NCBI GenBank assembly: GCA_026770705.1
Contig: JANJGN010000052.1
Coordinates: 1,612,001-1,676,000, forward strand
DNA: 64,000 nt
Reading direction: 5' to 3'
Origin: Isurus oxyrinchus
Taxonomy: Eukaryota
Shown here: one piece after another, positions 371 through 31,159 of the stretch
Numbering within the stretch: position 1 is the first letter of the stretch
How the letters are laid out: every line of letters begins with the position of its first letter
Notes under the pieces: model-generated
Told to the model about the DNA's origin: nothing
Databases searched by the model: none
The model's input: only the letters and a program-made list of their open reading frames with translations
Position numbers and translations under genes: made by a program

Positions 371-659
371 TTGGGTGTGAGTTTGGTTGGGTTTGGCAGT
401 GACTGTATAAAACATTGCAGATACAGGACTGGAGCAGCCATATCAATAACCAGGCTACTGGAGCAGCTGAGAGGCTGGGGATCCTGTGGTGTGTGACTCA
501 CCTGATTCCTCAAAGCCCAACCACGCTCACAGTTTTCATAAACAGGACCTCGATATTCATCAACACGATGGTTCGATTTGATTCCTGCTTTCCCCTCGCC
601 TCTCTTCTGTAATAGAGATGGAAATGGACAGAGTGACTATCAACATGATGTGTATTCGG

Positions 660-950
660 TGTTGGGTTTGATTATTGGGGAGAGAGTTCCAGATTTCCAC
701 TCCCCTTTGTGTGAAGAAGTGCTTCCTGACATCACCCCTGAACGGCCTGGCTCCAATCTGAAGTTCCAGCCCCCTTGTTCTGGACTCCACCCGACCCCCA
801 CCACCCACCCCCACCCGAGGGAATAGCTTCTCTCTATCGACCCTATCGAGTGTTTAATCAGTTTGAACCCCTCAATTAGATCCCTCCTTAATCTTCTAGA
901 CCCGAGGGAATATAATCGTAGACTGTGTGTAACCTGTCTGCATAATTTAA
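660..950 (-). mobile_element. CR1-type LINE 3' fragment
   Basis: Minus-strand peptides LYSLGSRRLRRDLIEGFK and RGDVRKHFFTQRGVEIWNSLP match the CR1 ORF2 C-terminus. Confidence 0.8.
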
Positions 951-952
951 CC

Positions 953-1270
953 AGAAAGATGTTCTGTACAACAAACCTGAGCCTCACACCCAGATCTCAA
1001 TAATCAGTAGAAATCTTTCAAAGGCATCAATCATTGGAATCTGTCTTTATAAAGTCACAACATCAACAAAGGATGGTGTTGGTGGTGGAAGTGAATTCCA
1101 ATCATTCCGTTACTTACCCAGGACCTGTCCGACTGCTCGCCTGGGGAGGAACTGCCCACACGCTCTGCTTGAGCTGAATGACCTCTTCCTGTGCTGCTCC
1201 CTCTGTGTATTTAATTAGAAAGGGTGGATGTGTCTCTGTGAGTCAAATCAGGAATTGGGGAACAATTGTG
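953..1270 (-). promoter_or_regulatory. Third copy of the Siglec-like promoter / non-coding first exon (donor GTAAGT at 1117-1112); gene would continue left of the window
   Basis: Near-identical to 12606-12912 and, inverted, to 21423-21730. Confidence 0.7.
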
Positions 1271-1896: not shown

Positions 1897-1993
1897 TTTC
1901 TCACACGCTTGGAGATGAAGAATCCACTCAGTCCAACACTCAAACAGATTCCAGCTCCAAACAATCCTGCTTTCCATTCATTGGAATCTCGCC
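1897..1993 (-). CDS. Gene A transmembrane exon (R)RDSNEWKAGLFGAGICLSVGLSGFFISKRVRK, uncharged TM
   Basis: tttacag acceptor, gtaagt donor, 97 nt, phase 1 to 2; same size and clear homology to the TM exon at 61346-61442. Confidence 0.85.
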
Positions 1994-3234: not shown

Positions 3235-3516
3235 GTTCCACAGTGATGGTTATGAACCCCTCCACTGCTCCATGTTCATTCTCTGCCACACACTGATAGT
3301 CTCCAGTGTCCCTGGATGTAACGTGAGGAATCACCAACCACAGCTCATTGTTGGAACTTGTTCTGTTCATTGGGACATTAAGATGTCGCCACGTCAGGTT
3401 AGAAGCTGGGAAGCTCTCGACAGAGCAGATTATCACTGCAGAATTCCCCTCAATTATATTGATCGATGAAGCGTTAATCATATCAAGAGAAGTAATTGAT
3501 AGGTTCCGTGGTGCAT
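3235..3516 (-). CDS. Gene A Ig C2-set exon 3 (membrane-proximal)
   Basis: 282 nt, phase 1-1, AG/GTGAGT; C..W..DxGxYxC Ig motifs (IICSVES, LTW, DTGDYQC). Confidence 0.9.
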
Positions 3517-4569: not shown

Positions 4570-4851
4570 ATTCCACAGTGATGGTTATGAATCCCTCCAC
4601 TGCTCCATGTTCATTCTCTGCCACACACTGATAGTCTCCAATGTCCCTGGATGTAACGTGAGGAATCACCAACCACAGCTCATTGTTGGAACTTGTTCTG
4701 TTCATTGGGACATTAAGATGTCGCCACGTCAGGTTAGAAGCTGGGAAGCTCTCGACAGAGCAGATTATCACTGCAGAATTCCCCTCAATTATATTGATCG
4801 ATGATGCATTAATCACATCAAGAGAAGTAATTGAGAGATTCTGTGGTGCAT
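4570..4851 (-). CDS. Gene A Ig C2-set exon 2
   Basis: 282 nt, phase 1-1, near-identical to 3235-3516; donor GT abuts an N gap. Confidence 0.88.
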
Positions 4852-5761: not shown

Positions 5762-6058
5762 ATTGCACAGTTAGTATGAGGGTCTGCTCCGATGAAACAG
5801 ATGGATATCTCACTCTGCAGCTGAGAGTGTGTCCGTGGTGTTTGAGTGATGGGATCAGGGTCAGAACAGAAGTATAGGTCAGAGTGACACCATGCTGAGT
5901 TACAGTGTTTGAGACTGATCCAGGTACGTCAGTGGGAGTGTCCCAGGTTAAGACAGGTGCTGCTGTTCCATTGCACATTGTGTTGAAGGTGCAGCTTACA
6001 TCCACACGCTTTCCTGCAATAATTTCAGCAGGGAATATCGTGGGTTTATCTGTGAAAT
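5762..6058 (-). CDS. Gene A Siglec domain-2-type C2 exon (DFTDKPTIFPAEIIAGKRVDVSCTFNTMCNG...LTVQ)
   Basis: 297 nt, phase 1-1, ttag/gtaaga; carries the extra B-C loop Cys (C-x5-C) that in Siglecs bonds to the V domain. Confidence 0.9.
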
Positions 6059-6429: not shown

Positions 6430-6798
6430 CAGAAACGTGAAGCCGGGTTACAGGGTAATAGTTATGGCTCGGACCATTGTCAAATTCTATTCTGAAAAAA
6501 TAAGGTCCTGCATCTTCCCGTCTGATGTTGTTTATAATCAGGGAACAGTCGCCATCTTTCAGGTCTCCAGACAGCCGGGTCCGATGGTGGAACCGTGGTA
6601 ACTCGTGACTGTGATCCTTGGAGTGAAAGGCAATGGGAGCCCAGGGAATCTGTTTCTCATTATTAAACCAGACTCCATCTCGCGGTTGGTTTTCCAGACA
6701 CGATGGATAACTGTAATGAAATGGAATCTGTACACACGAACCTTCCTGCACTGTCACCTCTCGTGGAGTGTCACCTTTCCACTCTTGTGAGGGTTCAG
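6430..6798 (-). CDS. Gene A Siglec-type V-set exon 2
   Basis: 369 nt, phase 1-1; N-terminal W, GSCVQIP, DCSL, YFFR (essential Arg position); B-strand Cys replaced by Phe. Confidence 0.9.
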
Positions 6799-8454: not shown

Positions 8455-8823
8455 CAGAAATGTGAAGCTGGGTTACAGGGTAATAGTTATGTCTCGGACC
8501 ATTGTCAAATTCTATTCTGAAAAAATAAGGTCCTGCATCTTCCCGTCTGATGTTGTTTATAATCAGGGAACAGTCGCCATCTTTCAGGTCTCCAGACAGC
8601 CGGGTCCGATGGTGGAACCGTGGTAACTCGTGACTGTGATCCTTGGAGTGAAAGGCAATGGGAGCCCAGGGAATCTGTTTCTCATTATTAAACCAGACTC
8701 CACCTCGTGGTTGGCTTTCCAAATGTGCTGGATAACTGTAATGACATGGAATCTGTACACACGAACCTTCCTGCGCTGTCACCTCTCGTGGAGTGTCACC
8801 TTTCCACTCTTGTGACAGTCCAA
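8455..8823 (-). CDS. Gene A Siglec-type V-set exon 1
   Basis: 369 nt, phase 1-1; GSCVQIPC, DCSL (Siglec B-E intrasheet disulfide pattern), YFFR. Confidence 0.92.
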
Positions 8824-10182: not shown

Positions 10183-11408
10183 TCAGCAACTCTTCAGAAT
10201 CCTGCTGAAGTCACGGATATTTCAGAAGGACAGGGAACAAGAAGTTTCTGGTATCAGCGTTTTGTGTGGGGCCCAGTTCAGTTTGAACAAATAAACAACA
10301 CCATCTTTGAAAGTCATGAACCCACCGCAGCGGCACCTCCGACACATGCAGAGCTCAGGCGAGAGGCGCTTTGTTAGTGTGTTTCACAGTGTCTGCTGGA
10401 GTAGGGTCAGTGCTGAGAGGGTCTGCTCAAGGATCATAACAACCTGCACTTGCACCTTCCAAGTAATAAGATTTTGTAAATGTATTCATTCATGGGATGT
10501 GGGCGTCGCTGCCAAGGCCAGCATTTGCTGCCCATCTCTAATGTCCCGTGACATAATCTCTGTAGCAGAGTAGAGACAATCATGATCACTCAGGATATTT
10601 GACATCTATCCACAAGAGCAGCTTAGGCTTCCTTCTCTCTTTCAGTTATCTTACTCCCTTATTGAAGTTTCTAGCATGGTGAGAACTGGATGGTTTGCTC
10701 GGACATTTCAGAGGAACCACGTTGCTATGAGTCTGGAGTCACATGTAGGCCAGACCAGATATAGACGGCAGATTTCCTTCCCTACAGGCCATTAGTGAAC
10801 CAGATGGGTGTGTATGACAATCGATGATAGTTTCATGGTCTCCATTACTGAGACTAACTCCCATTAGTGTAAACAGAGTGAACAGTTTTCCATTGATCCC
10901 ACCTTTCCCGTTCTCTCCGGTATTTTACACACTATTGCTCGATAATTTGATTCTGCCAAGGACCCCTTGGAAAATTATGGACACCAATTAGACAACCGAT
11001 GGAATAAGGAATCTCGTTGGATCCTCATTGTCTGAGGAATCTCTATGCATTCTCATTGTCTAAGGAATCTCTTTGGATCCTCATTGTCAAAGGGATTATT
11101 TCTGATCCAAACCCCATATTGTTGTATTGTTGATTCCGATGCAGCATTGTAGACTGACTTGTCCCCAAGCTCAGCACTGACCCTACTCCAGCAGACCCTG
11201 TGAAACACACTAACAAAGTGCCTCTAGCCTGAGCTCTGCATGAGTCGGAGGTGCCACTGTGGTGGGTTCATGACTTTCAAAGATGGTGTTGTCATTTTTT
11301 TTGTTCCAACTGAACTGGGCCCCACATGAAGTGTTGATACCAAAGACCTTGTGTTCCCTGTCCTTCTGAAACATCTGTGATTCAGCAGGATTCTGAAGAT
11401 TTGCTGAT
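10183..11408. repeat. Local inverted repeat, arms ~10183-10418 and ~11170-11408
   Basis: Arms align as reverse complements; both yield the ...PPTHAELR.EALC ORF on opposite strands. Confidence 0.85.
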
Positions 11409-12280
11409 AAGGGTCTTAAATTGTCTGATTGTTGATTGATACAACACAGGAGGAGCTCATGTGACCCATCGTGCATGTGCTGATTCTTTCCCAATTCCTC
11501 TCCAACACCTTTCGCACATTCCTGCAAATTTCCCTTCAAGTATTTATCCAGTTCCCCTTCTGAAAGTTCCTGTTGAATCTGCTTCCACCGCTCTTTCAGG
11601 CAGTGAGGCAATGGTCTCTCTCTGAGCTGCAAAGTGCCCAGATTCCGTGAAATTTAAACTATGCAGCAGATCAGAGACACTCATGATAACTAAGAATATT
11701 TGACACCTTTACACACAGACAGTTTTGCCTCCCTTCTCTCTTTCAGTTATCTTGCTCCCTTATTGAAGTATCTAGCAAGGTGAGAATGGACAGGAAGTGT
11801 GACACTGAACAGCCTGTCTATTCTAGGAGCTGCTGTGCTGTCTTCATGGGCAATTTTGAATAAAGGCAGCAAAGGATACAAATTTCAGGCCATTGCTATC
11901 GGAGACCTAACATTAGGATAGACTTCATCCCCCAGTTTTTATCCGTGCTTCTCGACTCAACCCATCACTCCCCATCGCTCACTGACCAACGTCCGATAGC
12001 ACCTGGATTTTAAGATTCTGCTCTCGCTGCTACAACCCTGCCTATCCCTGTAAACTCCTCCAGCCCCTACAACCCTGCAAGACCACTGGTCTCCTCCAAT
12101 TCTGCTGTCAGACAGGGAGTCAGTGTATATCAGTGAGCACAGGGGTGATGGGTGAATGGGACTTGGTGTGAGTTTGTACACTGGCACACTGCTGAATCAG
12201 TTCCCTATCAGAGCTCAATAAGAATGATCTTTTACAAAGACTATTAACCATAAATCTGTCTGAGCTGACAATGGTATTAC

Positions 12281-12320
12281 CTTGGAGAAGTGACAGGAGG
12301 AAGTAAGATTTCCCGATCAT
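12281..12320 (-). CDS. Gene A signal-peptide exon MIGKSYFLLSLLQ(G); exon with UTR 12281-12362
   Basis: ATG, hydrophobic core, CAAG/gtaat phase-1 donor, ctttcag acceptor upstream. Confidence 0.9.
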
Positions 12321-12770
12321 TGTCCACTCCCAGATATTTCCTCAGCTTCTAACTCTGAAGTTCTGAAAGAGAAAGGAGTTAATGAGACTTCACCTCTTGT
12401 CCGACAGCTCTCGAGAGATCAGAACTGCTTTTAGACAATATCTTCACAGACAAATTTGATTCTCTGTGGGATGATAGGTGCTCTGCAGAGAGTTACAAGG
12501 CTTTAAGAAAGAAAAACACTGAAGGACTTGCATTTCTATAGCACCTTTCACCACCTCAGGACACCCCAAAGCTCATGTCCCTGCTCTTCTCTCATCCCTT
12601 GAGCTAGAAAGATGTTCTGTACAACAGACTTGAGCCTCACACCCAGATCTCAATAATCAGTAGAAATCTTTCAAAGGCATCAATCATTGGAATCTGTCTT
12701 TATAAAGTCACAACATCAACAAAGGACGGTGTTGGTGGTGGAAGTGAATTCCAATCGTTCCGTTACTTAC

Positions 12771-12912
12771 CCAGGACCTGTCCGACTGCTCGCCTGGGGA
12801 GGAACTGCCCACACGCTCTGCTTGGGCTGAATGACCTCTTCCTGTGCTGATCCATCTGTGTATTTAATTAGAAAGGATTGATGTGTCTCTGTGAGACAAA
12901 ATGAGGAAGTTG
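12771..12912 (-). promoter_or_regulatory. Gene A non-coding first exon and proximal promoter with PU.1/ETS-type site AAAATGAGGAAGT (12898-12910)
   Basis: CTGG/GTAAGT donor; block conserved in three copies; the TSS is not determinable from sequence. Confidence 0.6.
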
Positions 12913-12989
12913 GAACAAAGTGAGTGAACAGCACTTTGCTGTGCACTGTCAGTAAACCCTGTGTCTGTATAAGAATATAAGAACAGAAC

Positions 12990-15920: not shown

Positions 15921-17051
15921 ATATTTTATATATTCATTCTTCCATGGGAAGTGGGCATCACTGGCTAGGCCAGCATTTATGGCCCATCCTTAATTACCTT
16001 GAGAAGGTGGTGGTGAGCTGCCTTCCTGACCCTCTGCACTCCATGTGGTGTAGGTACACCCACAATGCAGTTAGAGAAGGAAGTCCAAGATTTTGACCCT
16101 AGTGGCAGTGAAGGGACGGCGATATATTTCAAAATCAGGATGATGTGTGTCTTGGAGGCGAACTTCCAGGTGGTGGTGTCTGGGCATTTCAATCCCTTGT
16201 GACAATAAATGTAATATTATAGAAAATGCAAAGGCTTCTTGTAATCTATCACAGAATAAACAAGTTGCAGAATTCAGAAAGCACTTTCTGAAATGTCAAC
16301 AAAGTTCAGTGACATCACATTTCTGCTAATTACTATTCGGCCATGTTGGCTGCACGCAGTCAGGCAGTCCCTCGGTTGTGATGTGTCCACACAGCAGTAC
16401 TGGGATGCATCAGCATCAAAGGACATGCTTAGTTGTTGCCGTGCAATGCATTTATTGCGAGGCTGTTGCACACACGCCCTGTCGATGGACCCTCCGAATT
16501 ACCATTCTGAATCGAGGCAAATCAACTTTCCTGCAACAACTTGCATTTATATGGCACACTTAATGTAACAAACTGTCCCCAATCTCTTCAGGGGATTGTC
16601 ACCTACATATAAATCCATCTCAGAGACACATAATGAGGTATTAGGGACAGGTGACAAAAAGCTGATTTCACAAAGCCAGTTAATNNNNNNNNNNNNNNNN
16701 NNNNNNNNNNNNNNNNNNNNNNNNNNNNNNNNNNNNNNNNNNNNNNNNNNNNNNNNNNNNNNNNNNNNNNNNNNNNNNNNNNNNNNNNNNNNNNNNNNNN
16801 NNNNNNNNNNNNNNNNNNNNNNNNNNNNNNNNNNNNNNNNNNNNNNNNNNNNACTGAATCTCTGTCCCCAATGACTCAGCATCAAGTCGTCACTGGGGAA
16901 ACATTTCATTCCAAACCACACCAACCACAGACCCATTCAGTCCCTTCCTCCCTCTCTCCCCCTCTCCCCCAGTGGGTTGTCTCATGTTCCCAAGAATCTT
17001 CATCCCTGCCACCATCCACAAACCTCCTGACCACCTCTGCCTTTTTCACGC

Positions 17052-21200: not shown

Positions 21201-21422
21201 ATGATACCACAGATTGTCGACATGGACCATATGGCCAGAGACCTGTATTGGGAACTCTTATCGCCTGAGTTTCAGCCTCCGAGGTGAGGGGAAGGGGTCT
21301 AATCCCACAGAGCCATTGGAGAAGCTTCATGACTACAGCTGCCCAAATATGAGCTGACAGATCACACATGGTAAACGTTTTGCTGAGAGCACAAAACATC
21401 CTCAATCTTCTCACTGATTACC

Positions 21423-21563
21423 CACTTCCTCATTTTGTCTCACAGTGACACATCAACCCTTTCTAATTAAACACACAGAGGGATCAGCACAGGAAGAGGT
21501 CATTCTGCCCAAGCAGAGCGGGTGGGCAGTTCCTCCCCAGGTGAGCAGTCGGACAGGTCCTGG
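21423..21563 (+). promoter_or_regulatory. Gene B promoter (PU.1 motif CACTTCCTCATTTT 21423-21436) and non-coding first exon (donor GTAAGT at 21564)
   Basis: Inverted copy of 12771-12912. Confidence 0.6.
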
Positions 21564-22013
21564 GTAAGTAACGGAACGATTGGAATTCACTTCCACCACC
21601 AACACCATCCTTTGTTGATGTTGTGACTTTATAAAGACAGATTCCAATGATTGATGCCTTTGAAAGATTTCTACTGATTATTGAGATCTGGGTGTGAGGC
21701 TCAAGTCTGTTGTACAGAACATCTTTCTAGCTCAAGGGATGAGGGAAGAGCAGAGACATGAGCTTTGGGACATCTTGAGGTGGTGAAAGGTGCTATAGAA
21801 ATGCAAACCCTTCATTGTTTTTCTTTGTTAAAGTCTTGTGACTCTCTGCAGAGCACCTATCATCCCACAGATAATCAAATTAGTCTGAGAAAACATTGTC
21901 TAAAAGCAGTTCTGATCTCTCGAGAGCTGTCGGACAATAGGTGAGGTCTCATTAACTCCTTTCTCTTTCACAGCTTGAGAGTCAGAAGTGGATGGAATAT
22001 CTGGGAGTGGACA

Positions 22014-22053
22014 ATGATCGGGAAATCTTACTTCCTCCTGTCACTTCTCCAAG
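22014..22053 (+). CDS. Gene B signal-peptide exon MIGKSYFLLSLLQ(G)
   Basis: Identical peptide to the gene A leader; phase-1 donor gtaat. Confidence 0.9.
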
Positions 22054-23298
22054 GTAATATCATCGTCAGCTCAGACAGATTTATGGCTAATAGTCTTTGT
22101 AAAAGATCATTCTTATTGAGTGTGATTGGGAACCGATTCAGCAGTGAGCCAGTGTACAAACTCACACCAAGTCCCATTCACCCATCACCCCTGTGCTCAC
22201 TGATATACACTGACTCCCTGTCTGACAGCAGAATTGGAGGAGAATAGAGATCTCAGAGGGTTGTAAGAACTGGAGGAGGTTACAGAGATAGGGAGGGGAG
22301 AGGGTGGATTGCGGGTAAGAAATCAATGATGAGAATTTGAAATTTGAGTCATTGCTGGACTGGGAGCCAATGTAGGTCAGCCAGTGACAGGGGAGCGATC
22401 GGCTGAATAGAGAAACAGGGATAAAAACTGGGGAATGAGGTCTATCCTGATGCTAGGACTCGGATAACAATGCCCTGAAATTTTGTGTCATTTGCTGATT
22501 TTAGTCAGAATTTCCCATGAAGACAACACAGCAGCTCCTAGAATAGACAGGCTGTTCAGTGTCACACTTCCTGTCCATTCTCACCATGCTAGATACTTCA
22601 ATAAGGGAGCAAGATAACTGAAAGAGAGAGGAAGGTAAAGCTGTCTGTGTGTAAAACTGTCAAATATTCTGAGTTATCATGATTGTCTCTGACCTGCTGC
22701 AGAGTTTAAAGTTCTCAGAACATTAGCACTTTGCAGCTCAGAGAGAGACCATTGACTCACTGCCTGAAAGGGCGGTGGAAGCAGATTCAACAGGAACTTT
22801 CAGAAGGGGAACTGGATAAATACTTGAAGGGGACATTTTGCAGGGCTGTGGAGGAGAGAGCAGAGGTTAGAGTGGGACTTATTGGACAGAACTTTCAAAG
22901 GTCCAGCACAGGCTCGATGGGCCAAATGACTTCCTTCTCTTCCAGATCATTCTACAATCTGATAAATTAAGCCCCACATCAATAACTCTTAAGGCTCCTG
23001 CTGCAGGGATGGATCTTTGAGAAGGACAGAGAATAAGAGGTTTCTGGTATCATTTTCATATTGTACTGAATCTTGCTGCCAGAATGTTTGGTCACCGCTG
23101 ATCACCATGTTGTGTTTTTATAATGATATAAAGGCACCAGCCACTGATACGGAATTGGGTAAATACATTGTGGGTTCAGTTATTTTGAATAGGGACATGA
23201 GAACAGATGTACAAGGATAGAAAGCTGGGAGACACCTGCAGCCAAACTGTGTGAGCTGTGTTCTGCTCACAGACCAAAGTGAAACTTGGACTGGATGG

Positions 23299-25943: not shown

Positions 25944-26309
25944 CTGGACTACCACAAGTGTGGAAAGGTGACACTCCACGAGAGGTGACAGCGCAGGAAG
26001 GTTCGTGTGTACAGATTCCGTGTCATTACAGCTACCCATCATATTTAGTACCGAGATCACCTGTTGGAATCTGGTATATGAGAAGGAATTGGGAAAGATG
26101 GTCTATAGCCTTTCACTCCAAGGATCACAGTCGCAAGTTACCACGGTTCCACCATCGGACCCGGCTTTCTGGAGACCTGAAAGATGGTGACTGTTCGCTG
26201 ATTATAAACAACATCAGACGGGAAGATGCAGGATATTATTTATTCAGAACAGATTTTGACAGCAGGAATAGATACAACGACCGTCCTGAAACCCAGCTTC
26301 ATGTTTCTG
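25944..26309 (+). CDS. Gene B Siglec-type V-set exon 1 (divergent loops)
   Basis: 366 nt, phase 1-1; GSCVQIPC, DCSL, YYLFR. Confidence 0.92.
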
Positions 26310-27189
26310 GTAAGTGCTGTGTTATAATTACTCAACAATTCACATCCAACACTCAATGGGAAATAATAGTGTTTGATTTGCTTGTTTTTTTGCCGTGTTA
26401 ACCAGCGTCACTATTTTTAATGATTTGTCTATTTCTGCTCCCAGATCCATGAGCTTATTGTGTGTGATTGAATCCACATCATAGCTGTAACGTAAACCGA
26501 GCTGAGGGGTGATGACACCTCCCCCCTGAGTAAAGTGTCTCCTCCCCACTACACCTTCCACCCCTCACACTGTCTGTGTAATCTCCCGTCCCATCCCCAG
26601 CCTCTCTTTCCCCTCCAAAGTCCTGCAACGTGTTTCCATCTCCCGAATCCGTTCCCATCTTTCCCGGAACTCCATGTTTGAATCCCTTCAATCAGGTTCC
26701 CACCCCAGCCACTGTGCTGAAACAGCTCTTATTTTTATTGAGCCAATGCCAAGCCCCGATACCGAGCGAGAGCCTCCTCATTTGCTGAGTTTAAGGTGAT
26801 GAGTCAGCCCCTTAGTCCGTAGAGGGGATTCTCCTCGGTAATGTGCAGCCTTGTTTGTGTCTCTCCACAAGCGCATGAGGGATTTGTACAGAGGCTGCAG
26901 CGCTGGAGGGGGTCTGCACAGGGGTCCTGGCCTGTCCTGAGCCAGTTTTAGCAAGGACAACTCTGGCCTTGGCAGCTGAAAGCCAGCCATTGGACAGACG
27001 GGGCCTGTCACAAGGAGCCTGTTAGTCACTCCCCCCCGTGTCTCCTGTGCTCGGATCCAGACCATGTTGGCTGGTGGATCTGGCTCAGGAAGGGTCCTCC
27101 CCATGGGACCCCCCGATGGAAGGTGGGTCGAGCGGGTCATTCACTTGCATGTTTATTCTGCAGCTTTAATATTTTAAGAAGGTAAGAAT

Positions 27190-27920
27190 GTAGGAACATA
27201 AGAAATAGGGACAGGAGCAGGCCATTCGGTCCCTCCAGCCTGCTCTCACTGATCTGGTTGCGGCCTTAACTCCATTTTCCTGCTTGTCCCCCAAACCCTT
27301 GACTCCCTTGTCGATCAAAAACCTGCCTCACTCAGCCTTGAGTCTATTCAATGGCCCAGCCTCCACTGCTCTCTGGGGAAGAGAATTCCACAGGCTAGCG
27401 CCCCTCTGAGAGAGGAAATTCCTCCTCATCTCAGTCTTAAATGGGAGAGCCCTCATTCCGAAACTGTGCTCCCTGGTTCTAGATTCCCCCACGAGGGGGA
27501 AACATCCTCCCAGCATCCACCCTGTCAAGCCCCCTCGGAATCGGATATGTTTCAATAAGCTCACCCCTCATTCTTCTAAACTCCAATGGATACAGGCCCA
27601 ACCTGCTCAACATTTCCTCACAGGACAAACCCTTTAATCCCAGGAATCAGCCCAGTGAAGCTTCTCTGAACTGCCTGTACACAATGATCCTGTTACAATC
27701 TCACTAACACCCTGTGCAGCTGTTGCAAGACTTCCCTCCTTTTATACTCCATCCCTTTGCAATAAAGACCAACATTCCACTTGCCTTCCTCATTCTGTGG
27801 TGTTCCTGAATGCTGACTTTCTGTGATTCATGTACCAGGACACCCAGATCCCTCTGTACTGCATTCTGCAGCCTGTCTCCATTTAAATTATATCCTGTTT
27901 TTCTATTCTTCCTGACAATA
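27190..27920 (-). mobile_element. CR1 LINE 3' fragment
   Basis: FKTEMRRNFLSQRGASLWNSLPQRAVEA and VQRDLGVLVH. Confidence 0.85.
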
Positions 27921-28039
27921 TAATTTGTTGCCATTCTCCTCAGTATTGACCATCCCCCCAATTCAGCCTCATCTGTAAATATTGGGTTCAGTGGATCCAC
28001 AAACCATCCAGAGATAAATATTGAGATTTCTCTCCCCAG

Positions 28040-28405
28040 CTGAACCCTCGCAAGAGTGGAAAGGTGACAATCCACGACAGGTGACAGTGCAGGAAGGTTC
28101 CTGTGTACAGATTCCATGTCATTACAGTTATCCATCGTGTCTGGAAAACCAACCGCGAGGTGGAGTCTGGTTTAATAATGAGGAATGGAGAACATCGTCT
28201 ATAGCCTTTCACTCCAAGGATCACAGTCACGAGTTACCACGGTTCCACCATTGGACCCGGCTGTCTGGAGACCTGAAAGATGGCGACTGTTCCCTGATTA
28301 TAAACAACATCAGACGGGAAGATGCGGGTCCTTATTTTTTCAGAATAGAATTTGACAATGGTCCGAGCCATAACTATTACCCTGTAACCCAGCTTCACGT
28401 TTCTG
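28040..28405 (+). CDS. Gene B Siglec-type V-set exon 2
   Basis: 366 nt, phase 1-1; GSCVQIPC, extra Cys in PSCL, DCSL, YFFR. Confidence 0.92.
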
Positions 28406-29133: not shown

Positions 29134-29430
29134 ATTTCACAGATAAACCCACGATATTCCCTGCTGAAATTATTGCAGGAAAGCCTGTGGATGTAAGCTG
29201 CACCTTCAACACAACGTGCAATGGAACAGCAGCACCTGTCTTAACCTGGGACACTCCCACTGACGTACCTGGATCAGTCTCAAACACTGTAACTCAGCAT
29301 GGTGTCACTCTGACCTATACTTCTGTTCTGACCCTGATCCCATCACTCCAACACCACAGACACACTCTCAGCTGCAGAGTGAGATATCCATCTGTTTCAT
29401 CGGAGCGGACCCTCGTACTAACTGTGCAAG
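29134..29430 (+). CDS. Gene B Siglec domain-2-type C2 exon
   Basis: 297 nt, phase 1-1, near-identical to 5762-6058. Confidence 0.9.
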
Positions 29431-29753: not shown

Positions 29754-29905
29754 GACATCTGAATATCACAATGAACAGAACAAGTTCCAACAATGAGCTG
29801 TGGTTGGTGATTCCTCACGTTACATCCAGGGATACTGGAGACTATCAGTGTGCTCAGAGAATGAACATGGAGCAGTGGAGGGGTTCATAACCATCACTGT
29901 GGAAC
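29754..29905 (+). pseudogene. Dead C2 exon of gene B (5' half missing, 1-nt frameshift)
   Basis: Matches the 3' half of the 282-nt C2 exon; TGTGCTCAGAG versus intact TGTGTGGCAGAG. Confidence 0.85.
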
Positions 29906-31019
29906 GTTAGTTAAGACAAACTTCAACATCTCTCTCAGATTGAAACACTACAGAAACACACATAAATATCCAGCCTTAAATAGACACCTGCAGACACACA
30001 ATCCCACATCTATGAGCACACACAAAGACACACTCACAAACAAACACACTAGCACATACTCCCCTGTGGATTACCTGACCTCCCTCAGTGCTGCACCGGA
30101 GAGTTGACCTGGATTCTGGGATTTGTGTTCCCTTTCATATTTATGGAAGAATATGGAAATTGCAAAGTCTATTACAGACACTCAGATGCACAGAGATACT
30201 CACAGATACTCTCTGCCTCTCCAACTCTCTATCCTCCTTTAAGAACCTTCCTGAAATCTAACTCTTTGACCAGTCACCAGTCCCAATTCCTCCTTACGTG
30301 ATTTTGTGTGAAATTTTGTTTGAGTATCTGAGAGTAAGAGGGAAGTGGAGAGGTTTAGGAAGGGAATTCCTGTTGCTGAAAAGCTTACATCAAGTTCTCA
30401 GCTTTCCAGTGCCCATTTTTCACATGATGTCCATGTTCATAATGGGGATTGCCTATGTAAACGTCACGCTGTAGTTACACTCTCCCACCAGTGGTAGCAC
30501 GGTAACACTTAACCCTTGCATCTCCAAGCTTTTCAAGCAATTTCACTTCCTAATTTCCTACTATTCACCTCAACCATTCCCTGTGGGAGTGAGTTCCATA
30601 TTCTCCCCTCTCTCTGGGTAAAGATTGGAACTGTTTATTAAGCGGGGGGTGTAAGTCCGTGGGGGAGTCCATCCCGATACTGCCCGATTCGCACACACGG
30701 CTGAGATGGATTTTCACCCGGCACTAAAGGTTTCCAGAATTTTCTACAGCACAATCCTGTACACAGCGATGGAGAGAAACATTGGACAGGGAGTCCAACA
30801 GCACAATGATCCATTCTCACCAATGTTCCACGCTAAGGGGAAAGTTCCGATTGTCCACTCTTAGAGTGTTTACAATGAAAACATTCATTCCACATTGAAT
30901 CCCAGTGGATGGGTCAATATTACAGCAAATGTTGCAGTGATATGAAGCTTGATTGTTCAGCCAGAGTGAGAGATTGAAAGCGGAGAGTCAGTGATGATTT
31001 CTTTCTGTGTGTTCTCTAG

Positions 31020-31159
31020 ACAGTGGAGGAGAGATTCTGCACGTGATCCTGATCCTGGGAATACGAGCTGTGATATTCCTTGTGGCTGTGGTTATCACTA
31101 TCACTGGAGTCTGTGTCTGGGAGAGACAAACAGTGAAAGGAAGTCGACAGACTGTTTGA
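31020..31159 (+). CDS. Gene B terminal TM exon (D)SGGEILHVILILGIRAVIFLVAVVITITGVCVWERQTVKGSRQTV*, Arg in TM, activating type
   Basis: Pyrimidine tract ttctttctgtgtgttctctag; phase 1 matches the upstream donor; long hydrophobic stretch; stop at 31157-31159. Not in the ORF track. Confidence 0.8.

Follow-up and report, generated by a model that had tools for sequence, protein, structure and literature searches.

Siglec-like receptors of sharks and rays can carry two or more adjacent V-set domains, and a V domain that follows another V domain in these chains usually has a cysteine that N-terminal V domains almost always lack. This cysteine probably bonds to the first Cys of the preceding V domain, so that the V-C2 disulfide of Siglecs would be reused between V(n) and V(n+1) in true multi-V receptors. 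We describe two such genes in a stretch of 64,000 nt of DNA from Isurus oxyrinchus (the window), together with homologues that extend the pattern to other elasmobranchs.

Results

Two genes with tandem V exons

The window contains gene A on the forward strand, gene B on the reverse strand and the 3′ part of a third gene, C. Gene A is ordered leader-V1-V2-C2, followed by a broken remnant of a second C2 exon and a transmembrane (TM) exon with a short tail, and gene B is ordered leader-V1-V2, followed by three C-type domains, TM and tail exons (Table 1). An N gap at 16685-16852 sits between A and B, and their relative orientation therefore depends on the assembly. We took the splicing of the TM and tail exons of both genes from homologues. 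The second C2 remnant of A is probably skipped in splicing, as in the homologues P0021 and P0027, which join the first C2 straight to the TM exon. Strand letters, ITIM and the other names of domains and motifs are used as is customary and as in the cited papers. The best homologues of A V2 are proteins of Carcharodon (up to 90%) and Cetorhinus (up to 85%). We rejected the idea that A and B are two alleles of one gene: their V1 exons differ at 70 of 369 columns, and their TM and tail differ as well.

Table 1 Exons and diagnostic residues of genes A and B (positions in the window)
Feature	Position	Strand	Residues and basis
Gene A leader exon, coding part, phase 1	22014..22053	+	Direct sequence; matches homologue N-termini
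A V1 exon	25944..26309	+	First Cys 26006-26008; B-strand Cys 26021-26023; Tyr at +7; F-strand Arg 26246-26248; Pfam V-set and Ig_CD22
A V2 exon	28040..28405	+	First Cys 28102-28104; B-strand Cys 28117-28119; F-strand Arg 28342-28344
A V2 +7 Cys, B-C loop, proposed partner of V1 first Cys	28138..28140	+	TGT; loop placement from DSSP of homologue models
A first C2 exon	29134..29430	+	+6 B-C loop Cys 29217-29219 (proposed partner of V2 first Cys); aligns with CD33 C2 cysteines via P0011
A second C2 exon remnant	29754..29907	+	Only 3′ half left; frame broken
A transmembrane and short-tail exon	31020..31159	+	TM Arg 31064-31066; 93% identity to P0021 end
Gene B leader exon, coding part, phase 1	12281..12320	-	Sequence
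B V1 exon	8455..8823	-	First Cys 8761-8759; His at +7; 5′ part V1-type, 3′ part and downstream intron V2-type
B V2 exon	6430..6798	-	First Cys 6736-6734; Phe for B-strand Cys (6721-6719); +7 Cys 6700-6698
B first C2 exon	5762..6058	-	+6 Cys 5975-5973
B second C-type Ig exon	4570..4851	-	Sequence
B third C-type Ig exon	3235..3516	-	Sequence
B transmembrane exon	1897..1993	-	TM segment without charged residue
B cytoplasmic exons, boundaries approximate	502..1210 (about 1210-1103, 609-502)	-	tblastn of P0009 and P0022 plus translation; tyrosine motif in second

A preliminary description of this DNA stated that A and B each contain two V exons, phase 1-1 and with the F-strand Arg retained, that both V2 domains and neither V1 have an extra Cys, and that the first C2 domain has a Cys at +6. 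All of this is seen in the sequence. The four V exons have AG/GT ends, lengths divisible by three and phase 1-1, and each lies above the cut-off for both Pfam V-set and Ig_CD22. The Arg is present in every one of them; that of A V2 lines up with the FFR motif in Siglec-5 and Siglec-8. The extra Cys is encoded by TGT in both V2 exons and stands seven residues past the B-strand Cys position (C-HYSYPS-C; hereafter +7), a place occupied in V1 by Tyr (A) or His (B). The C2 motif reads C-TFNTT-C in A and C-TFNTM-C in B. The residues of the B-E strand Cys pair are complete in A V1, A V2 and B V1. B V2 has Phe (TTT) for the B-strand Cys, a change seen once in the 150 domains that have a residue in that column; it may reflect allelic variation, decay or a mistake in the assembly, and the loss may leave a free E-strand Cys or a poorly folding domain.

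A V2 and B V2 have a common 5′ flank, with 94.9% identity across 687 nt of exon and flank. The two +7 cysteines are therefore not independent gains. Two of two V2 domains against none of two V1 domains, in related copies, is in itself little proof against chance, and we take the pattern to be real from the homologue tally described below rather than from the window.

The cysteine follows domain position in sharks and rays

Three homologue searches, one of which listed 120 of 232 matches, gave 148 proteins, 145 of them taken as elasmobranch (144 named, one unnamed). The homologues, V-V junctions included, are database gene models, some of them fused or incomplete. Among the 145 listed proteins, the maximum number of V domains in an unbroken row was one in 113, two in 20, three in six, four in three, five in one, seven in one and zero in one; that is, 31 of 145 have two to seven adjacent V domains. 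We tallied 203 V domains, four of them from the window, and dropped 11 that lacked a B strand.

If the cysteine pairs with a preceding V domain, it should occur in V domains preceded by a V and be missing from N-terminal ones. The homologues agree with this prediction: among the matches listed, the +7 Cys is present in 40 of 51 V domains that follow another V, in one of 131 first V domains and in none of 10 other V domains. With identical domains removed, the counts among these matches are 36 of 47 against one of 118 (Fisher p = 2e-25, a value inflated by kinship, as the tally counts relatives and not independent events). The one first V domain with the cysteine, in P0032, comes from a partial model that has no leader and starts three residues before a V2-type N-terminus, and within multi-V proteins none of 22 distinct first V domains has it. 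The +7 column is the strongest marker of position among 121 columns (MCC 0.83; next, 0.57). The first Cys, its proposed partner, is kept in all 49 V domains that precede a V among the matches listed, and the B-E pair is intact in 39 of the 40 Cys-bearing internal V domains. At the Arg position, 53 internal V domains among the matches listed have 45 Arg, seven Lys and one Ser. The preliminary proposal that the V2 Cys is the partner of the V1 first Cys in a V1-V2-C2 chain thus gains comparative support.

The cysteine was found in 11 species (Cetorhinus, Carcharodon, two Scyliorhinus, Mustelus, Chiloscyllium punctatum, Hemiscyllium, Rhincodon, Pristiophorus, Mobula and Hypanus), representing lamniform, carcharhiniform and orectolobiform sharks, a sawshark and two rays. 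Given this spread, it either predates the shark-ray split, roughly 270-300 million years ago, or was gained repeatedly at the same place. The preliminary description had regarded it as new in V2; it is instead old and common to sharks and rays, and an origin in Isurus oxyrinchus or at this locus is rejected.

A disulfide at this place would not be obligatory, since 11 of the 51 V-after-V domains among the matches listed lack the cysteine. Three of the 11 belong to P0001, a model that begins with 240 residues from another gene's tail, and two of these three cluster with first-V domains in a tree of V domains. The V2 of P0031 is a near copy of its V1 (88% identical), and four are V2 or V4 domains of rays with a different Cys after the C-strand Trp. 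For the V2 domains of P0007, P0009 and P0022 we have no explanation. The ray proteins concerned, P0010 and P0012, have four V domains each, with the +7 Cys in V3; in their V2 and V4, Lys replaces the Arg and a Cys stands five residues past the C-strand Trp. The seven V domains of P0001, from Cetorhinus, alternate between V1-type and V2-type, which suggests duplicated V1-V2 units or fused gene models. P0019 (Cetorhinus isoform X3) is a V1-V2-TM model without C2, in which the V2 first Cys would stay unpaired.

Outside elasmobranchs, three listed proteins have several V domains, and none of these has a +7 Cys: one is a frog V-V-C protein, and two are teleost proteins whose V domains are split by C domains. 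The frog protein (P0146, Hyperolius, residues 9-242) is Siglec-like and has three extra cysteines in V2, none at +7; it is possibly a separate duplication with another solution.

Position versus ancestry

We built a tree of 148 V domains with the +7 column removed. It is poorly resolved, with 60 of 129 inner branches open, and an independent-pairs test on it, with only three supported pairs, had no power. Cys-bearing domains are scattered in this tree. B V1, which has His at +7, sits with V2 domains of lamniforms, sharing 96% identity with P0021 V2, and the V2 domains of Mustelus cluster with Mustelus V1 domains. The +7 Cys is kept in six V2 domains with a V1-type N-terminus (P0014, P0016, P0018, P0020, P0021 and P0027).

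Gene B is itself mosaic. Its V1 and V2 differ at 27 of 564 aligned positions, and eight of these differences fall within one 30-nt interval over the Cys codon (permutation p = 0.003). At the informative sites in the window, from the intron to exon position 115, V1 sorts with V1 and V2 with V2, whereas exon positions 146-166 (the C-C′ region) sort by gene and not by position. The intron after B V1 is V2-type (84% across 1071 nt). Conversion or unequal crossing-over therefore mixed V1 and V2, with the Cys region still position-specific. Taken together, these comparisons indicate that the +7 Cys tracks domain position rather than domain ancestry, even where V1 and V2 have been mixed. Linkage contributes, since the whole 5′ third of the exon, and not the Cys codon alone, sorts by position; linkage to the 5′ flank can explain part of the pattern. 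V1 and V2 of gene B have a common C-C′ region, different from that of gene A, which suggests within-gene homogenisation of a specificity loop; in MAG, this region forms part of the ligand site.

Placement of the cysteines in structure models

We read the confidence and DSSP assignments of AlphaFold2 models of Cetorhinus homologues, rather than of the window proteins: P0011, a V-V-C2 model (mean pLDDT 71.7, pTM 0.45), and P0019, a V-V-TM model (mean pLDDT 68.1, pTM 0.48). In these models, with pTM <0.5, the V2 +7 Cys and the C2 +6 Cys are each assigned to the loop right after strand B, and the first Cys lies just ahead of strand B. In Ig topology the B-C loop faces the preceding domain, and the first Cys and the B-C loop Cys are at facing poles of successive domains.

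The modelled V2-C2 pair superposes on MAG Ig1-2 with Z 19.2 and rmsd 4.0 over 213 residues, and on Siglec pairs overall with rmsd 3.4-4.7. These Siglec V-C2 pairs fit the modelled V1-V2 less well, end to end at rmsd 6.1-9.7, with other two-domain rows of the comparison at 11.9-17.3; JAML fits V1-V2 about as well as the Siglec V-C2 pairs do (rmsd 7.4-7.5). The fits show an extended arrangement and no more; the models are compatible with a V1-V2 disulfide. A complex prediction without alignment, in which the V domains of P0019 were given as separate chains, scored 0.00, which is not evidence either way.

A disulfide between successive V domains and its alternatives

The account that we favour would begin with tandem duplication of a V-set exon, both copies being spliced into one chain, leader-V1-V2-C2...-TM. 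In an ordinary Siglec, the first Cys of the V domain bonds the B-C loop Cys of the next C2 domain; after the duplication, the first Cys of V1 would face a V domain and be left unpaired. The +7 Cys in the B-C loop of the internal V domain would then take the role of the C2 Cys and restore the pair, giving V1-V2 and V2-C2 disulfides. An internal V domain with both a donor and an acceptor Cys would be a repeatable unit, in agreement with the homologues that have three to five such domains in a row. The likely effect would be a chain with no free thiol, a stiffer and longer ectodomain, and more than one Arg-bearing, putative sialic acid site.

The preliminary description also allowed that V1 and V2 are alternative cassettes, used as L-V1-C2 or L-V2-C2, in which case V1-V2 chains would be rare or annotation artefacts. 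Skipping would indeed preserve the frame, every V exon being phase 1-1, and cassette use of V1-V2 units is possible in P0001, which alternates the two types over its seven V domains and belongs to a cluster of 20 member sequences. However, the 31 of 145 models among the matches listed that join V to V disfavour this reading, as does the finding that a leader stands directly before a +7-Cys V in none of the 131 first V domains among those matches. No V domain of a single-V protein is at least 93% identical to a V domain of a multi-V protein (no matches between 69 and 86 domains), an L-V2 isoform would bare a free Cys at its tip, and the V1-V2 introns, of 1730 and 1656 nt with ordinary splice sites, contain nothing that forces exclusion. 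We regard exclusive use of the two exons as very unlikely. Alternatively, the +7 Cys could be neutral: fixed once in an ancestral second V exon, it would have been carried along with the 5′ flank, unbonded. The common ancestry of both window cases fits this, as do the position-sorted informative sites from the intron to exon position 115, the absence of the cysteine from 11 of 51 internal V domains among the matches listed, and the lack of power of the phylogenetically independent test with its three supported pairs. Yet the cysteine persists in shark and ray domains with no more than about 50-60% identity to the query, and it survives where the 5′ end of V2 is V1-type. Nor does it ever occur in a leader-bearing first V domain, although 14 Arg and 10 Tyr stand at this place among the 118 distinct first V domains (matches listed), and a single step separates CGY and TAY codons from Cys. 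A passive origin of the whole pattern is, in our view, unlikely.

The +7 Cys might also be functional and pair elsewhere, either between chains in a covalent dimer or within V2, for example with the E-strand Cys of B V2, which is orphaned there. Mouse Siglec-E is described as a disulfide-linked dimer (PMC6829431), and the extra cysteines of the ray V2 and V4 domains and of the frog V-V protein mean that other pairings may exist. Dimerisation, however, gives no reason for the absence of the cysteine from first V domains, and it would leave free a V1 first Cys that is kept in 49 of 49 cases among the matches listed; pairing inside the domain would have to contend with a B-E pair intact in 39 of 40 Cys-bearing internal domains. 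We consider such a partner improbable, and read the +7 Cys, in what follows, as the candidate partner of the preceding V domain's first Cys.

Relation to Siglecs and other known systems

The best PDB sequence matches of the V domains are Siglec-5, Siglec-8, CD33, Siglec-7, Siglec-10, sialoadhesin and MAG. Sequence matches place CD33-related Siglecs slightly above MAG and sialoadhesin, and the structure match places MAG first. The residues of the Siglec inter-domain disulfide (first V Cys and C2 B-C loop Cys) are present in A and B and align with those of CD33 via P0011. Type I membrane features are also present, namely the leader, C2-set_2 and TM exons, the TM Arg of A and the tyrosine motif in the tail of B. 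A and B have, in their V domains, the F-strand Arg, the first Cys and, apart from B V2, the B-E pair, and in their first C2 domain the Cys at +6, of the V-C2 module of MAG/Siglec-4, CD33/Siglec-3, Siglec-5 and Siglec-10; instead of the usual single V domain, the shark genes put a second V, with its own B-C loop Cys, between V1 and C2. Judged by sequence, A and B belong to an expanded Siglec family in elasmobranchs, and their sialic acid binding, including that of V2, is putative.

The inter-domain disulfide has described roles in single-V Siglecs. The MAG bond C37-C165 is reported to help restrict inter-domain flexibility (PMC5150538). C36 of CD33 is described as normally bonded to C169, with a free C36 leading to disulfide-linked oligomers, and the B-E pair of CD33 as C41-C101, from which we take the shark B-E bond (PMC6669322). 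Mutation of either Cys in Siglec-6 is reported to abolish one glycolipid-binding activity (PMC10122656).

Primate Siglec-12 (Siglec-XII), like A and B, has two N-terminal V-set domains, and is described as the sole Siglec to do so (PMC7876704, PMC6829431, PMC6288428). Both V domains of human Siglec-XII reportedly lack the critical Arg (PMC7876704), which is retained in each of the four V domains of the window, and elasmobranch models have up to seven V domains rather than two. NCBI automatic names include 'lectin 12' on many multi-V shark models. Among the matches listed in the three homologue searches there was no mammalian Siglec-12 sequence. V1 and V2 are 55-91% identical within one shark gene, pointing to a duplication separate from that of Siglec-12.

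The layout of the window resembles that of paired Siglecs. The TM of A contains an Arg and is followed by a short tail; B combines a neutral TM with a tyrosine motif, and gene C (61441-58790, -) a neutral TM with two tyrosine motifs resembling an ITIM and an ITIM-like motif. The pairs Siglec-5/14 and Siglec-11/16 are described as having near-identical V domains, kept alike through gene conversion, with a charged-TM, short-tail member and a tyrosine-motif partner (PMC13358205, PMC6288428); they differ from A and B in being single-V receptors. The top Foldseek matches of the V1-V2 model are JAML and pIgR, which also have V domains arranged head to tail and share only 17-20% identity with shark V1-V2. 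Neither is known as a sialic acid-binding lectin.

A teleost study describes fish genomes as lacking CD33-related Siglecs (PMC7226832), and the whale shark genome paper, in the text available, mentions Siglecs once in passing (PMC8455134). Our literature search, which covered mainly open papers, found no account of elasmobranch multi-V Siglecs or of a V-V disulfide; gene-family tables in genome-paper supplements could list such proteins. Multi-V models are already in public annotation, and what is new here is the cysteine rule and its reading.

The published picture of Siglecs, as given in PMC7876704, is of a single V-set domain with Siglec-12 as sole exception; elasmobranchs have many members with two to seven Arg-bearing V domains and with tails paired as activating and inhibitory. 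If the V-V disulfide is real, it would be a clear case of a compensating cysteine after domain duplication, kept in position despite gene conversion, and would offer a natural blueprint for multivalent sialic acid sensors made of one chain. It would also allow a test of what the inter-domain disulfide of Siglecs is chiefly for, eliminating a free thiol or fixing the binding domain's geometry. A bolder reading, which we offer tentatively and think somewhat doubtful, is that elasmobranchs possess a V repeat that locks to itself, separate from Siglec-12: disulfide-locked rods of two to five or more sialic acid-binding V domains, multivalent within a single chain and used in pairs of activating and inhibitory receptors, in which each V domain would bind glycan.

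Additional features of the window

A leader and a sialoadhesin/MAG-like V exon lie at 46284-46239 and 45424-45138 (-). The exon ends before the F-strand Arg, its best PDB matches are sialoadhesin and MAG, and it is probably a pseudogene. Between B and A there are orphan copies of gene C-type tail exons at 17339-17055, 18982-18857 and 20423-20139 (-), of which the copy at 17339-17055 has an in-frame stop. A cytoplasmic exon of B type has a copy upstream of each leader, at 12848-12771 (-) and 21486-21563 (+), and the two copies fall in a 1.6 kb inverted duplication (11335-12924 / 21410-23052).
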